Below, one piece after another: positions 1,713-53,505 of a DNA stretch of 64,000 nucleotides (positions are counted from its first letter, which is position 1; each line of letters starts with the position of its first letter). The notes below the pieces were generated by a model. The model was not told the origin of the DNA and searched no databases. It saw only the letters and a list, made by a program, of their open reading frames with translations. The DNA is from Shigella phage ESh24. The position numbers and the translations under genes were made by a program. The stretch lies in sequence record ON528734. One strand, 5' to 3'.

Positions 1713-1925
1713 ATGCTACAATTAACTGAAAAGCAACTTCGCAATCTTACTGTGCTTCAATTAGATGAAATTCGTAGGGAAGTTGGAAATATCATTTCAG
1801 CTTTGCGTCGAGAAGTATCACTCAACCAATCTCCGGCAGACTATACTAGATTGCGAAATTTTGAAAAATACCTTGATAAAGTTAAGGCCGTGCATCGGCA
1901 TAAAGTAAATACAGGACAAAAATGA
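1713..1925 (+). CDS. hypothetical protein (70 aa), rI.-1 position
   Basis: ORF with GGGG RBS; between tk and rI. Confidence 0.55.
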
Positions 1926-1937
1926 TAGGAGGCCTTT

Positions 1938-2231
1938 ATGGCCTTAAAAGCAACGGCACTATTTGCCATGCTAGGATTGTCATTTGTTTTATCTCCACCA
2001 ATTGAAGCGAATGTCGATCCTCATTTTGATAAATTTATGGAATCTGGTATTAGGCACGTTTATATGCTTTTTGAAAATAAAAGCGTAGAATCGTCTGAAC
2101 AATTCTATAGTTTTATGAGAACGACCTATAAAAATGACCCGTGCTCTTCTGATTTTGAATGTATAGAACGAGGCGCGGAGATGGCACAATCATACGCTAG
2201 AATTATGAACATTAAATTGGAGACTGAATGA
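1938..2231 (+). CDS. rI: lysis inhibition regulator rI (membrane/periplasmic)
   Basis: 97 aa, N-terminal signal-anchor MALKATALFAMLGLSFVLSPP; size and position as T4 rI. Confidence 0.85.
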   Translation: MALKATALFAMLGLSFVLSPPIEANVDPHFDKFMESGIRHVYMLFENKSVESSEQFYSFMRTTYKNDPCSSDFECIERGAEMAQSYARIMNIKLETE

Positions 2232-37235: not shown

Positions 37236-38663
37236 GTGGTAGAAATTATTCTTTCTCATCTTATATTTGATCAAGCTTATTTTTCAAAAGTTTGGCCATA
37301 TATGGATTCAGAATATTTTGAAAGTGGTCCAGCTAAAAATACATTCAAATTAATTAAATCTCATGTTAATGAGTATCATAGCGTTCCATCTATCAATGCG
37401 TTAAATGTTGCATTAGAAAATAGTTCATTTACTGAAACAGAATATTCTGGTGTAAAAACACTTATTTCAAAACTGGCTGATTCTCCAGAAGACCACAGTT
37501 GGTTAGTAAAAGAAACAGAAAAATATGTTCAGCAAAGGGCGATGTTTAATGCTACGTCTAAAATAATCGAAATTCAAACTAATGCTGAGCTTCCTCCGGA
37601 AAAACGAAATAAGAAAATGCCGGATGTTGGTGCTATTCCTGACATCATGCGGCAAGCATTATCTATTTCATTTGATAGTTACGTTGGTCATGATTGGATG
37701 GATGACTATGAAGCACGTTGGCTATCTTATATGAATAAAGCTCGTAAAGTTCCATTTAAACTCAGAATTCTAAACAAAATTACTAAAGGCGGAGCTGAAA
37801 CAGGAACACTGAACGTTTTAATGGCTGGCGTTAACGTTGGTAAATCATTAGGACTTTGTTCATTAGCAGCAGATTATTTGCAGCTTGGTCATAACGTTCT
37901 TTATATCTCCATGGAAATGGCAGAAGAAGTCTGCGCTAAACGTATTGATGCTAATATGCTCGATGTTTCTCTTGACGATATTGATGATGGACATATTTCT
38001 TACGCTGAGTATAAAGGAAAAATGGAAAAATGGCGTGAGAAATCTACTCTCGGTCGTTTAATCGTTAAACAGTATCCTACTGGTGGAGCAGACGCTAATA
38101 CATTCAGGTCTCTCTTGAACGAATTGAAGCTCAAAAAGAATTTTGTTCCAACAATCATTATTGTCGACTATCTAGGTATTTGTAAATCTTGCCGCATTAG
38201 AGTTTATTCAGAAAATAGTTACACAACTGTTAAAGCTATTGCAGAGGAATTGCGTGCTCTGGCTGTTGAAACCGAAACTGTTCTTTGGACTGCAGCACAG
38301 GTCGGTAAACAAGCTTGGGACTCTTCTGATGTTAACATGAGCGATATTGCAGAATCTGCCGGTCTTCCAGCAACGGCTGATTTTATGCTTGCGGTCATTG
38401 AAACCGAGGAGCTAGCAGCTGCTGAACAACAACTCATTAAGCAAATCAAATCACGATATGGTGATAAGAATAAGTGGAATAAGTTTTTGATGGGTGTTCA
38501 AAAAGGAAATCAAAAATGGGTAGAAATTGAACAAGATTCTACTCCAAGTGAAGTGAGTGAGGTAGCAGGTTCACAACAGATTCAGGCTGAACAGAATCGC
38601 TATCAAAGAAACGAATCGACTCGAGCTCAGTTAGATGCTTTGGCAAATGAATTAAAATTTTAA
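37236..38663 (+). CDS. 41: replicative DNA helicase gp41 (DnaB-like), GTG start
   Basis: 475 aa; Walker A GVNVGKS; AGGAG RBS before GTG. Confidence 0.95.
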   Translation: MVEIILSHLIFDQAYFSKVWPYMDSEYFESGPAKNTFKLIKSHVNEYHSVPSINALNVALENSSFTETEYSGVKTLISKLADSPEDHSWLVKETEKYVQQRAMFNATSKIIEIQTNAELPPEKRNKKMPDVGAIPDIMRQALSISFDSYVGHDWMDDYEARWLSYMNKARKVPFKLRILNKITKGGAETGTLNVLMAGVNVGKSLGLCSLAADYLQLGHNVLYISMEMAEEVCAKRIDANMLDVSLDDIDDGHISYAEYKGKMEKWREKSTLGRLIVKQYPTGGADANTFRSLLNELKLKKNFVPTIIIVDYLGICKSCRIRVYSENSYTTVKAIAEELRALAVETETVLWTAAQVGKQAWDSSDVNMSDIAESAGLPATADFMLAVIETEELAAAEQQLIKQIKSRYGDKNKWNKFLMGVQKGNQKWVEIEQDSTPSEVSEVAGSQQIQAEQNRYQRNESTRAQLDALANELKF

Positions 38664-38694
38664 TTTACAAGCTGACAAGACTATGGTATAGTAG
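38663..38694 (+). promoter_or_regulatory. T4-type early promoter
   Basis: ATTTACAAGCTGACAAGACTATGGTATAGT. Confidence 0.65.
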
Positions 38695-38721
38695 TCTTGT
38701 TGGTTAAATGAGGAGATTGTT

Positions 38722-38904
38722 ATGGAATTGGTAAAGGTAGTTTTTATGGGGTGGTTTAAGAATGAAAGCATGTTTACTAAAGAAATCACAATGATGAAAG
38801 ATGACGTTCAATGGGCTACTACTCAATATGCTGAAGTTAATAAAGCATTAGTTAAAGCTTTCATTGATGACAAGAAAGTATGTGAAGTAGATTGCCGAGG
38901 ATAA
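38722..38904 (+). CDS. dmd: Dmd antitoxin (inhibitor of host RnlA/LsoA)
   Basis: 60 aa; position immediately after 41 as in T4. Confidence 0.85.
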   Translation: MELVKVVFMGWFKNESMFTKEITMMKDDVQWATTQYAEVNKALVKAFIDDKKVCEVDCRG

Positions 38905-38905
38905 T

Positions 38906-39163
38906 ATGCATATTGTTTTATTTAAACCTACTTCGTATAACGTCAGGAAAAATACGCAATTCAAAGCACTTATTGCAGATACATGGGAATTGGTGTTAGA
39001 TATTCCAGCAGAAGAAAGTCCTCCATTTGGTCGAGTGGAATTTATTAAGTTTGCTGTACGTCCTACGAAGAGGCAGATTCGTCAGTGTAAAAGGTATTTT
39101 CGTAAGATCGTTAAGCTAGAAAAACAGTTTGTAACATGTGATTACACAGAAGTTTTAAAATAA
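38906..39163 (+). CDS. hypothetical protein (85 aa), 61.4 position
   Basis: ORF between dmd and sp. Confidence 0.5.
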   Translation: MHIVLFKPTSYNVRKNTQFKALIADTWELVLDIPAEESPPFGRVEFIKFAVRPTKRQIRQCKRYFRKIVKLEKQFVTCDYTEVLK

Positions 39164-39223
39164 CTATTTACTTTTGTTGGAAATTGAGATACTATATAAA
39201 CATAAACTACTGAGGAGATTATC

Positions 39224-39517
39224 ATGAAAAAATTTATCTTTGCCACAATTTTTGCTTTAGCTTCTTGTGCTGCTCAGCCTGCTATGGCAGGTTATGATAA
39301 AGATTTGTGCGAATGGTCTATGACTGCTGATCAGACTGAGGTTGAAACTCAAATTGAAGCAGATATTATGAATATCGTTGAGCGCGATCGCCCTGAAATG
39401 AAAGCTGAAGTGCAAAAACAGCTTAAGTCTGGTGGTGTAATGCAGTATAATTATGTTCTGTATTGCGATAAAAACTTTAATAATAAAAATATCATCGCTG
39501 AAGTGGTAGGTGAGTAA
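39224..39517 (+). CDS. sp: spackle periplasmic protein
   Basis: 97 aa with signal peptide MKKFIFATIFALASCAAQPAMA. Confidence 0.8.
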   Translation: MKKFIFATIFALASCAAQPAMAGYDKDLCEWSMTADQTEVETQIEADIMNIVERDRPEMKAEVQKQLKSGGVMQYNYVLYCDKNFNNKNIIAEVVGE

Positions 39518-39530
39518 TTAGAGGTTAAGT

Positions 39531-39887
39531 ATGTATAGTTCTGAATTTTCATATTTAAAAATGGAAAAAATTTCATACGATTTTATAGATGAAAAGGTTT
39601 ATTATAGTTTCCATGAACCACGTTTTAATAGTGAGGTTGGGTTTATTGTAGTAAAAGACAATTTTATTTTAAAAATATATTCAGCATTAAAGGATTTTCA
39701 TTACGAAAATATTAACCTAAAATTTAATAAAGAAAACGTTCGTAATTGCGCAGTAACAATTACAGGAAATAAAGGTACATGTGTTATGCTATCTGATGAA
39801 ATTAATGATTTGCTAAATGATGCAGAAAATATTACTGCGCCATCTATTGATGACCAAATTTTTAATGCTTTTATGAATAGAGGTTAA
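39531..39887 (+). CDS. hypothetical protein (118 aa), 61.2 position
   Basis: ORF; T4 61.2 has been reported as an anti-defense factor (from memory, unverified). Confidence 0.5.
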   Translation: MYSSEFSYLKMEKISYDFIDEKVYYSFHEPRFNSEVGFIVVKDNFILKIYSALKDFHYENINLKFNKENVRNCAVTITGNKGTCVMLSDEINDLLNDAENITAPSIDDQIFNAFMNRG

Positions 39888-39888
39888 T

Positions 39889-40053
39889 ATGAAAACATAT
39901 AAAGAATTTATCAAAGAAGATATGGTCGCTGGAGATTCAGGTGGTAATCCTGAAAATATCTCTACTGGAACAACATCAGGTGCTGTAGTAAATAAAGGTC
40001 CTGAACAGATTCCTAAAAAGAAAAAAGAGGAATCTAAAGAAAAAGAAGAGTAA
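39889..40053 (+). CDS. hypothetical Gly/Lys-rich small protein (54 aa)
   Basis: ORF between 61.2-like gene and 61. Confidence 0.4.
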   Translation: MKTYKEFIKEDMVAGDSGGNPENISTGTTSGAVVNKGPEQIPKKKKEESKEKEE

Positions 40054-40055
40054 AA

Positions 40056-41084
40056 ATGTCATCAATACCTTGGATTGATAATGAGTTTGCATACCGTGCA
40101 TTAGCTCATTTACCTAAATTCACACAAGTAAATAATAGTTCAACTTTTAAATTGCGGTTTAGATGCCCAGTGTGTGGAGATTCAAAAACCGACCAGAATA
40201 AAGCTCGTGGATGGTATTATGGTGATAATAATGAAGGAAACATTCATTGTTATAACTGTAACTATCATGCACCAATCGGAATATATTTAAAGGAGTTTGA
40301 ACCTGATTTATATCGTGAGTATATCTTTGAAATAAGAAAAGAAAAAGGTAAAAGTCGTCCAGTAGAAAAACCTAAAGAACTTCCTAAACAACCTGAGAAG
40401 AAAATAATTAAATCTCTTCCGTCATGTGTTCGATTAGATAAACTGGCGGAAGACCATCCAATTATAAAATATGTAAAAGCTCGTTGTATTCCAAAGGATA
40501 AATGGAAATATCTTTGGTTTACAACCGAATGGCCTAAATTAGTTAATAGCATAGCACCGGGAACATATAAAAAGGAAATTTCTGAGCCTCGTCTTGTTAT
40601 TCCAATTTATAATGCTAATGGAAAAGCTGAGTCTTTTCAAGGACGTGCATTAAAGAAAGATGCTCCTCAAAAATATATCACCATCAAAGCTTATCCTGAG
40701 GCAACAAAAATCTATGGAGTCGAACGAGTTAAAGATGGTGATGTATATGTTCTAGAAGGACCTATAGATTCGCTTTTTATTGAAAATGGTATAGCTATTA
40801 CGGGTGGTCAATTAGACCTAGAAATTGTTCCATTTAAAGATAGACGTGTGTGGGTTTTAGATAATGAACCTCGTCATCCTGACACTATTAAGCGAATGAC
40901 TAAATTAGTTGATGCAGGAGAAAGGGTTATGTTTTGGGATAAATCTCCCTGGAAATCAAAAGATGTTAATGATATGATTAGAAAGGAAGGTGCAACCCCT
41001 GAACAAATTATGGAATATATGAAAAATAATATTGCCCAGGGGTTAATGGCTAAAATGCGGTTATCTAAATATGCTAAGATTTAA
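40056..41084 (+). CDS. 61: DNA primase gp61
   Basis: 342 aa; zinc ribbon CPVCG...CYNC, Toprim EGPIDSLF. Confidence 0.95.
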   Translation: MSSIPWIDNEFAYRALAHLPKFTQVNNSSTFKLRFRCPVCGDSKTDQNKARGWYYGDNNEGNIHCYNCNYHAPIGIYLKEFEPDLYREYIFEIRKEKGKSRPVEKPKELPKQPEKKIIKSLPSCVRLDKLAEDHPIIKYVKARCIPKDKWKYLWFTTEWPKLVNSIAPGTYKKEISEPRLVIPIYNANGKAESFQGRALKKDAPQKYITIKAYPEATKIYGVERVKDGDVYVLEGPIDSLFIENGIAITGGQLDLEIVPFKDRRVWVLDNEPRHPDTIKRMTKLVDAGERVMFWDKSPWKSKDVNDMIRKEGATPEQIMEYMKNNIAQGLMAKMRLSKYAKI

Positions 41085-41281
41085 ATTAACCCAACTAAAG
41101 CAAATGCTAAATCTACGAATGTATCAAGAGTAACTACTGGAATACTAACGCCATGAGCAATAGCAACTGGCGATAAAACAAAATTCCAAAGTAAAATTCC
41201 TATCATAGCAGAAATAGTAAAAGCTATACGTTTCTTATTACCTTTTATGGCATTAACAAGTGCCATTAATTTTTGTACCAT
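41081..41281 (-). CDS. antisense small membrane protein (66 aa), convergent with gene 61
   Basis: Only intergenic minus-strand ORF; strong RBS AAAGGAGG 6 nt before ATG on minus strand; two hydrophobic helices. Confidence 0.6.
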   Translation of the reverse strand: MVQKLMALVNAIKGNKKRIAFTISAMIGILLWNFVLSPVAIAHGVSIPVVTLDTFVDLAFALVGLI

Positions 41282-41316
41282 ATGTCCTCCTTTAAATTAA
41301 TATTTATCATAAATTT

Positions 41317-41348
41317 GTTTACTTTCTCAGCTTGTTATGGTATTATAA
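41317..41348 (+). promoter_or_regulatory. T4-type early promoter upstream of nuclease-like ORF
   Basis: GTTTAC (41317-41322) and TGGTATTAT -10. Confidence 0.65.
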
Positions 41349-41371
41349 AATAAATTGCTGAGGATGATATA

Positions 41372-42711
<1,340 letters not shown>

Positions 42712-53133: not shown

Positions 53134-53505
53134 ATGTTTAAAATCGGTAAGAAATATCGTATTCGCGAAGGCGAAGAAAAGAAATATCTAATGTCTGCTA
53201 TTTATAGGAATGGTTCTATTAATGCTGTAATATCTACAAGCGAATTTATCGTTGAAGATATGAAAGGTAATAATGTTACAATGATTAGTACAGCATCTGG
53301 AAATGATGGAAAAATTCTTCACAGTTTTCAGAGTAATGTTCTAATTTATGATGAAGAATTTGACTTCTTCGAAGAAGTTCCTGAAGATTTTGATTTTGAA
53401 TGCACCATCACTATGAAATCTGGTGACCCTCTTTCTTTTACAGTTAAAGATGAAAGAAGCCGTTTAAGAATTATTAGTCTCCTTCAAGCCATTAAATTTG
53501 AGTGA
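53134..53505 (+). CDS. hypothetical protein (123 aa)
   Basis: ORF. Confidence 0.5.
   Translation: MFKIGKKYRIREGEEKKYLMSAIYRNGSINAVISTSEFIVEDMKGNNVTMISTASGNDGKILHSFQSNVLIYDEEFDFFEEVPEDFDFECTITMKSGDPLSFTVKDERSRLRIISLLQAIKFE

Follow-up and report, generated by a model that had tools for sequence, protein, structure and literature searches.

Introduction

Between the replicative helicase gene 41 and the primase gene 61, bacteriophage T4 carries a run of small genes, dmd-tifA-sp-adfA-61.1, in which Srikant, Guegler and Laub (2022, eLife) proposed an 'anti-TA (toxin-antitoxin) island' made up of dmd, tifA (61.4) and adfA (61.2), with the other genes as attractive candidates (PMC9391042). Here we compare with this island the corresponding interval of Shigella phage ESh24 (sequence record ON528734), namely five small genes at positions 38722-40053 of a 64,000-nucleotide stretch that we call the window. 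An earlier sequence-only reading had described the interval as a concentration of host-defense countermeasures, which agrees with the published island of dmd, tifA and adfA and goes too far for the third gene, sp. Spackle, the product of sp, is a periplasmic protein that, once exported, inhibits the tail lysozyme (gp5) of a superinfecting phage, so its action is directed at another phage and not at host defense.

AdfA was reportedly described by LeRoux et al. in 2022, and the facts about it given here come through a later paper of the same laboratory. According to that paper, AdfA is an anti-DarT factor that binds the DarT1 ADP-ribosyltransferase, where His at position 164 (RB69 numbering) enables and Arg prevents neutralization of DarT1 (PMC11257639). 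Gene 61.4 was renamed tifA in 2022, its 85-residue product being an inhibitor of ToxN, the endoribonuclease of the type III toxIN system; amplification of dmd-tifA lets T4 escape plasmid-borne toxIN, and the TifA homologs of T2, T4, T6 and RB69 all inhibit ToxN (PMC9391042). TifA binds ToxN together with RNA and thereby traps the toxin in an inactive ribonucleoprotein, with K55, R56 and R59 needed for both RNA binding and ToxN inhibition and residue 41 tuning potency (PMC10853763). The open reading frame (ORF) of gp61.1 was listed in 2006 as conserved and without function (PMC1524935).

The interval is a probable T2-type allele of the anti-TA island

Inspection of the window places five ORFs on the + strand, each preceded by a Shine-Dalgarno sequence, between gene 41 (37236-38663, +; 475 amino acids, aa) and gene 61 (40056-41084, +; 342 aa), flanks that carry the gp41 helicase and DNA primase annotations in T4 and related records. 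The coordinates, sizes and strand of the five genes are exactly those of the sequence-only reading. The explanation that we favor, and consider probable as a whole, is that the interval represents the anti-TA island of T-even phages in its T2-type allelic form, placed between helicase 41 and a backbone of 61.1 and primase, in which a 118-aa protein would bind a toxin, a shared C-terminal tail would take part in the shuffling of cassettes, and gp61.1 would act in the prohead.

The position between genes 41 and 61, the gene order and the early promoter upstream of dmd are those of the T4 island (PMC9391042), and identity to the T4 proteins is 100% for Dmd, 96% for TifA, 99% for Sp and 96% for gp61.1. 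The two differ in the slot between sp and 61.1, where T4 has gene 61.2, encoding the 208-aa AdfA, and the window has a gene for a 118-aa protein, which is the arrangement of T2. The window belongs to Tequatrovirus (T4-like); over bases 38600-40150, identity to Escherichia phage slur07 is 98.6% and 509 phage records are matched, the five-gene block as a whole is shared at 97-98.6% identity with hundreds of Tequatrovirus genomes, and PHROG matches were obtained for all five proteins. The hotspot itself, Dmd, TifA, Spackle and AdfA are already published, and the allele is that of T2 and about 140 other sequenced phages. The modest new leads are the 118-aa AdfA paralog with its tail and a prohead hypothesis for gp61.1.

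The first three genes are accounted for by characterized T4 proteins. The dmd gene (61.5; 38722-38904, +) encodes a 60-aa, antitoxin-like inhibitor of the RNase toxins RnlA and LsoA, and its earlier identification stands. Its product matches Pfam Dmd (PF17587; 1.6e-46) over residues 1-60 of 60, that is, over its full length, and matches PDB 5HY3_B 'Antitoxin Dmd', the solved RnlA/LsoA-binding antitoxin, at 1.8e-37; from its identity with the characterized T4 protein we infer that the window Dmd inhibits RnlA and LsoA. The tifA gene (61.4; 38906-39163, +) has its start codon 1 nucleotide (nt) past the dmd stop. Its 85-aa product had been listed as an unknown, which we correct: it is the RNA-binding ToxN inhibitor TifA, differing from T4 gp61.4 by three substitutions (P10S, A81T and I83V) and matching Pfam DUF7279 (2.2e-20) and phrog_2375 (2.9e-38). 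The basic cluster K55, R56 and R59 is present, and residue 41 is Phe (F41), the weaker T4-type allele. The sp gene (61.3; 39224-39517, +) encodes the 97-aa periplasmic Spackle of superinfection exclusion, as had been recognized, with matches to Pfam T4_Spackle (PF25676; 1.3e-44) and PDB 6X6O (8e-62). Since the mature chain of the solved structure 7CN6 begins at residue 23 in an alignment to Sp residues 23-97, the signal peptide comprises residues 1-22. Near-identity to experimentally characterized T4 proteins establishes, at the level of sequence, the functions of Dmd, TifA and Spackle.

That the remaining small proteins are anti-defense candidates, as the sequence-only reading had it, survives in part. 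The homology search it suggested for the 85-, 118- and 54-aa proteins returned TifA for the first and an AdfA relative for the second; the 54-aa peptide, gp61.1, instead resembles the capsid protein gp23 and the leader of the internal proteins (IPs), and looks like a prohead-directed backbone product. PADLOC and NCBIfam gave nothing for these three proteins. Within the locus, the 118-aa AdfA paralog is thus the only uncharacterized gene product that we would name a candidate for counter-defense.

The best sigma-70-type site of the region lies just upstream of dmd (38664-38692, +; TTTACA-17-TATAGT, 10 of 12 matches, with an extended -10 TG). This promoter-like site for a dmd-tifA operon agrees with the T4 early promoter upstream of dmd from which T4 dmd-61.4 is transcribed (PMC9391042). 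No Rfam RNA family was found in 38000-42000.

A second member of the TifA family was observed in Escherichia phage DK-13 (MT611523.1), where an unannotated 73-aa ORF at 1811-2032 (+) of locus L003, between the genes for a 117-aa and a 63-aa protein, is a TifA-family (DUF7279) paralog (E=3.3e-20) with the motif ARPTKRQIRKLKK; the Gaprivervirus island therefore holds two TifA copies.

The 118-aa protein resembles the C-terminal half of AdfA

The gene in the AdfA slot (T2-type gene 61.2; 39531-39887, +) encodes a protein of 118 aa that is 98% identical to T2 gp61.2 and matches phrog_4122 (4.4e-72). It had been described as an unknown at the 61.2 position; the position is right, and the identity is that of the T2-type gp61.2, not of AdfA proper. 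DNA homology to T4 breaks directly after the sp stop codon and returns 14 codons before the end of the 118-aa gene. BLASTP aligns the protein to T4 AdfA residues 109-208 with 34% identity over 103 residues, and Pfam AdfA (PF23813) is matched at 32.2 bits, against a gathering score of 27, over profile positions 113-211 only. When the tail is trimmed, the globular part is still recognizably similar to AdfA residues 109-194, with a Smith-Waterman z of 4.5 (the score is reached in 7 of 2000 shuffles) and an hhalign P of 0.0024 at a probability of only 12%. The joint alignment of the 118-aa and AdfA families (A7) contains the conserved columns Y-SF, VG-I-VKDN-I and F--EN.

The AlphaFold2 model of the 118-aa protein from the single sequence was unusable, with a predicted local distance difference test score (pLDDT) of 44, and the score rose to 83 with an alignment that included AdfA sequences. 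This model consists of a globular core (residues 8-100, pLDDT above 90) followed by a tethered C-terminal helix, and its predicted fold runs five strands, helix, strand, helix. Foldseek of the model against the PDB returned nothing significant, the best matches being acetate-kinase fragments (E about 0.1; TM 0.33-0.37), and a profile search of PDB sequences gave no match. Against the predicted viral structures of BFVD, Foldseek matched a 118-aa relative and three further proteins of 157 aa, 212 aa (E 2.6e-5) and 145 aa (E 3.9e-4), of which the 212-aa match is taken to be AdfA-type from its length and 28% identity.

We judge from these comparisons that the 118-aa protein is a true but distant homolog, a putative single-domain paralog of the C-terminal half of AdfA and not AdfA proper. 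It sits in the same locus and ends in the identical C-terminal tail; it is half the size (AdfA has about 208-216 aa), lacks the AdfA N-terminal half, shows about 30% identity and has no counterpart for its residues 1-20. Because both genes coexist in many phages, the 118-aa gene is a paralog rather than an allele of adfA. The family is confined to T4-like phages, where word-indexed and exhaustive protein searches returned close relatives only, in five clusters with three true representatives. By tblastn, 336 phage records match the 118-aa protein (334 of them covering at least 80% of the query), and 293 do so at at least 90% identity.

An alternative sees in the gene no more than decaying adfA, truncated and non-functional after recombination. 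Half the AdfA length, the same slot, a Pfam AdfA match that depends on the tail and a junction scar upstream of the gene would all suit a remnant. Purifying selection speaks otherwise, as the ratio of non-synonymous to synonymous divergence (dN/dS) is 0.18-0.27 across divergences up to dS of about 1.7-1.9, and so do the intact orthologs of 117-125 aa in Gapriverviruses and other lineages at 41-47% identity, the 293 near-identical records, the coexistence with full-length adfA in about 158 genomes and the compact, confidently predicted fold. The gene also has no DNA similarity to the body of adfA and is therefore not a simple truncation. A decaying remnant is, on this evidence, extremely improbable.

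The favored account treats the 118-aa protein as a functional relative of AdfA, which would most likely act as AdfA does, by binding in stoichiometric amounts to a toxin, be it a DarT variant or a different one. The globular domain would set specificity, and the toxin-binding mode would presumably be common to both proteins by analogy. That the protein acts by toxin binding is plausible, if somewhat short of probable; that its target is DarT specifically is doubtful. Several points tell against a close functional parallel. The Pfam AdfA match does not survive removal of the 14 C-terminal residues and is thus due to the shared tail SIDDQIFNAFMNRG. The tail-trimmed statistics given above are modest, and the profiles behind them are shallow (effective number of sequences, Neff, about 1.5-2). 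T4 'NIINHIAS' aligns to 'NVRNCAVT', which places the equivalent of specificity residue 164 at Cys73 in helix 67-78, so that the DarT1-enabling His is replaced by Cys. Finally, T2 is reported by the LeRoux laboratory to be naturally without adfA, and its DarTG1 resistance is explained by AdfN (PMC11257639).

Phages said to "lack adfA" nonetheless carry a putative single-domain relative with an identical invariant tail. The 118-aa protein may serve as a natural half-size construct for mapping toxin recognition by AdfA-type proteins, and it is a candidate to explain DarTG2 resistance in T-even phages, so far unaccounted for.

A separate observation concerns AdfA itself. In T4 AdfA (locus L001, 3633-4259, - strand) and its homologs P0010-P0025, the N- and C-terminal halves are weakly alike (hhalign P=3e-4; shuffle z=3.5), both carrying [FV]VK[DN]N-I. 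This is only suggestive of an internal duplication in AdfA of the domain that is present once in the 118-aa protein.

An invariant tail is shared by the genes of a modular locus

The adfA-, 118- and 145-type genes all end in [SV][IV]DDQIFNAFM[NK][RK][GD], encoded in the window, together with the stop codon, at 39843-39887 (+). In an alignment of AdfA and 118-family proteins, all 18 share an unchanged DDQIFNAFM, and between the two families the proteins are otherwise 31-47% identical. In IMG/VR the motif occurs in T4-like contigs only and in three protein families only (AdfA, 118-aa and 145-aa). AlphaFold2 models the tail as a detached amphipathic helix with a low pLDDT of 54-59.

The genes that bear this tail are arranged differently among phages. 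T4 has sp-adfA-61.1, the window and T2 have sp-118-61.1, and phages AV120 and CAM-21 have sp-adfA-118-61.1 in tandem; the Gaprivervirus layout is sp-145-117-..-61.1, in which both the 145-aa and the 117-aa gene carry the tail. Outside the tail, hhalign gives no support (P 0.08-0.09) for relating the Gaprivervirus 145-aa protein to AdfA or the 118-aa family, against a Foldseek E of 3.9e-4. Counts obtained with junction-specific megablast queries give 140 records for the window-type junction of sp to 118 and 158 for the tandem junction of adfA to 118; adfA adjoins 61.1 in 271 records including tandem cases, which leaves about 113 of the T4 type with adfA only.

Inspection of the junctions suggests how these layouts could interconvert. 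In tandem phages a direct repeat of about 50 base pairs (bp), comprising tail DNA and ribosome-binding site (RBS), brackets the 118-aa gene, and the adfA-to-118 joint of AV120 reads ...AATAAAGGTTAATATG. The window keeps a scar of such a tandem joint, TAGAGGTTAA, right after the sp stop codon. At 39518-39530 (+) the scar TTAGAGGTTAAGT now provides the RBS of the 118-aa gene and, judged by its match to the tandem joint, is what is left of the joint (tail, RBS and stop) of a tail-bearing cassette that preceded the gene. Cassettes would be gained and lost through the direct repeat of tail DNA, leaving adfA only, 118 only or the tandem. The tail-plus-RBS repeat would thereby explain the shuffling of counter-defense cassettes at this locus.

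The repeat raises the question of whether the tail SIDDQIFNAFMNRG is conserved for nucleic-acid reasons, as an RBS that couples translation to the next gene and as a recombination linker. The GAGG Shine-Dalgarno sequence of the next gene lies within the last three tail codons in every copy (in the window, that of gene 61.1), and the segment whose presence varies from genome to genome is bounded precisely by the repeat. Codon usage points the other way: across the nine DDQIFNAFM codons, five synonymous positions vary among copies with no amino-acid change, and the window gene differs from that of DK-13 in its last 12 codons by five synonymous changes and one non-synonymous change, when the whole-gene dN is 0.45 and the rest has diverged to about 47% identity. 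From this substitution pattern the tail is read as selected as a peptide. Peptide and nucleic-acid roles are not exclusive, and we give an explanation by nucleic-acid function a minor chance.

In our model the flexibly tethered tail helix of the AdfA, 118-aa and 145-aa families would provide a common second contact, or interaction handle. The tail would then be interaction handle and recombination joint at once, and the variable globular domains would set target specificity.

Two identities for the tail were considered and rejected. None of 185,579 bacterial and archaeal species genomes contains the exact motif, which argues against a mimic of a cellular antitoxin. As to a motif that binds the T4 sliding clamp (gp45), the C-terminus of gp43 in the window is SLDFLFG, and the gp43 and gp55 termini are only loosely like SIDDQIF.

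gp61.1 resembles the N-terminal region of the major capsid protein

Gene 61.1 (39889-40053, +) encodes a 54-aa peptide, correctly noted before as Gly/Lys-rich (G 7, K 10 and E 10 of 54), with a Lys/Glu-rich C-terminus. By tblastn it is found in 1,396 phage records from hosts that include Escherichia, Klebsiella, Acinetobacter and Aeromonas, among others. In Aeromonas phage 31.2 and Vibrio phage KVP40, 61.1 lies between helicase and primase and there is no dmd, tifA, sp or adfA. Because 61.1 is kept where the island is absent, we infer that it is an ancestral gene of the T4-like backbone, upstream of which the island was inserted, and not island cargo.

Two features of the peptide point to the capsid. 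One is the leader. The capsid-targeting sequence of the T4 internal proteins reportedly goes back to Mullaney and Black in 1996. Within that sequence, residues 4 and 7 serve targeting and residues 8 and 10 serve processing by the gp21 protease (PMC9026906). Residues 1-10 of gp61.1, MKTYKEFIKE, are identical at 8 of 10 positions to MKTYQEFIAE of IPII and IPIII, with Y4, F7, I8 and E10 shared. The corresponding DNA agrees at 25 of 30 nt and drops to chance level on either side, and no other ORF in the window has this leader pattern. The leader of T4 gp61.1 shares MKTFKEF with IPI. Differences from the internal proteins are also clear: gp61.1 has only 54 aa, lies beside the primase gene and lacks a late promoter, and it is conserved far more broadly than the hypervariable IP genes.

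The other feature is a match to gp23 that begins within the leader. Residues 2-38 of gp61.1 align to gp23 residues 57-93 with 16 of 37 identical (score 80, z=12, reached in 0 of 2000 shuffles), and the shared residues take in F-[LI]-x-E at the cleavage site and GD-G---NI--G-TSGAV----GP. In gp23 this stretch runs from the last part of the delta-piece across the cleavage site after Glu65 into the N-arm of mature gp23*. In the whole PDB the best match of gp61.1 is gp23 (E=0.0085), and there is no similarity to gp24 (z=0.1). gp61.1 differs from gp23 in lacking the HK97-fold body and in ending in the Lys/Glu-rich tail. At the end of the leader stands a motif of the gp21 type (L/I-x-E), I-K-E followed by D. 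Homologs have L-N-E, M-N-E, V-D-E, L-F-E, V-E-E or L-Y-E immediately before DMVAGD or a close variant, and in all nine divergent family members inspected (9/9) a hydrophobic P3 and a Glu at P1 precede it directly.

In Mosigvirus, Karamvirus, Acinetobacter phages and KVP40 the family members have 154-158 aa, with an N-terminal domain of about 110 residues in place of the 10-residue leader, and their profile aligns to gp23 residues 31-107 (hhalign P=6e-6). This long form was located at L009 865-1341, L010 877-1341, L028 898-1365, L029 892-1368 and L030 898-1503. Its N-terminal domain (about 85-110 residues; Y--RF-RL----F-EW-A---IID--G--LKRP-T-EEK--YT-FH--VR--KR----VPG) has no Pfam family and occurs by tblastn in 618 phage records, from Acinetobacter and Mosigvirus phages to KVP40, Pelagibacter phage HTVC008M and Sinorhizobium phage phiM19, a distribution by which it is a near-core domain of the T4 superfamily.

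GenBank records such as MN895435.1, PQ657821.1, MW021756.1 and OP870145.1 label the 51-62-aa gp61.1 ORF a 'major capsid (domain-containing) protein'. Since the similarity is one of 37 residues to the gp23 N-terminus, the label is an over-annotation. We found no discussion of the gp61.1-gp23 similarity in the literature, though annotation pipelines had picked it up.

Our proposal for Tequatroviruses is that the predicted capsid-targeting leader takes gp61.1 into the prohead, where gp21 would cleave it after Glu10, at the I-x-E site, to a 44-residue peptide that would mimic the N-arm of mature gp23. On the strength of the leader and the gp23 match, gp61.1 is probably delivered and processed in this way. 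Several caveats attach to this proposal. No late promoter lies near 61.1, although early proteins may persist and still be packaged. P1' is Asp, and it is Ala or Ser in the IP and gp23 sites. The long-form homologs are without the MKTY leader. The gp23 segment is too conserved to show lineage-specific co-variation with each phage's gp61.1. Searchable literature yielded no proteomic evidence of gp61.1 in proheads or virions.

Some of the same observations would suit an accessory role in the replisome, alongside helicase 41 and primase 61, with an incidental resemblance to the capsid-targeting leader and to gp23. From T4 to KVP40, 61.1 lies just upstream of primase or between helicase and primase; its transcription unit is early or middle, lacking a late promoter; and its C-terminus is basic. 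An incidental resemblance is hard to square with a gp23 match that is highly non-random in both the pairwise and the profile comparison (z=12 and P=6e-6) and spans the maturation cleavage site, or with a leader that agrees with the capsid-targeting sequence at all four experimentally important positions and whose DNA match is limited to those 30 nt. We therefore regard a replisome role as unlikely. Proximity can equally be read toward the island, with gp61.1 as an anti-defense factor, for instance an injected or early-made decoy of the capsid N-terminus that blunts capsid-sensing immunity. The gene adjoins the counter-defense island, its leader is like that of the injected anti-restriction protein IPI, and the peptide mimics a segment of gp23. 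Its conservation in about 1,400 genomes of phages whose hosts range from Escherichia to Acinetobacter, Aeromonas and Vibrio is unlike that of fast-evolving cargo, and the mimicked segment, gp23 57-93, does not include the Gol peptide that activates Lit. An anti-defense role for gp61.1 is, in our estimate, very unlikely. Still distinctly unlikely, though less so, is a joint reading in which gp61.1 is a very small internal protein of the head, its gp23* N-arm mimic being incorporated into the capsid or injected from it and perhaps serving as a decoy for capsid-sensing immunity, and in which AdfA and the 118- and 145-aa proteins are interchangeable toxin-binding cassettes whose 'handle' helix meets a common partner.

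A direct mimic of Gol, the Lit-activating peptide, was also considered and rejected, as similarity stops at gp23 residue 93 or 94.

Prohead targeting and gp21 processing offer a testable hypothesis for a peptide that T4-like phages conserve and that has lacked an assigned function since at least 2006.

Other features of the window

The T4 late promoter octamer TATAAATA was not found in the locus, its closest + strand copies lying at 1680 and 43321. These and one at 53199 are the only three copies in the 64-kb window, when 11.4 +/- 3.4 are expected from shuffles and at least three were present in 100 of 100 shuffles. The scarcity fits avoidance of the octamer in a region of early and middle genes.

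Downstream of the primase gene, a hydrophobic 66-aa ORF (41081-41281, -; phrog_2024) occupies the position of T4 '61.-1', with its 3' end overlapping the primase stop, and a terminator-like hairpin on the + strand (41247-41266) lies inside it. Further on, a 186-aa ORF (41372-41932, +) stands directly upstream of the gene for the Dam (GATC) methyltransferase, with an ATGA overlap with the dam start at 41932. T4 has no ORF at this position, where 61 and dam are separated by a 310-bp gap, and the ORF is found in 163 phage records including T2. A search of PDB sequences with its product gave no match. The protein has a D...EIK motif of PD-(D/E)XK-like type and weakly matches restriction endonucleases (PADLOC REase_II, 8.3e-5; Pfam DpnII, 0.0045; BanI, 0.01), and DpnII, like Dam, recognizes GATC. 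The 186-aa ORF could encode a candidate phage-borne nuclease partnered with Dam.

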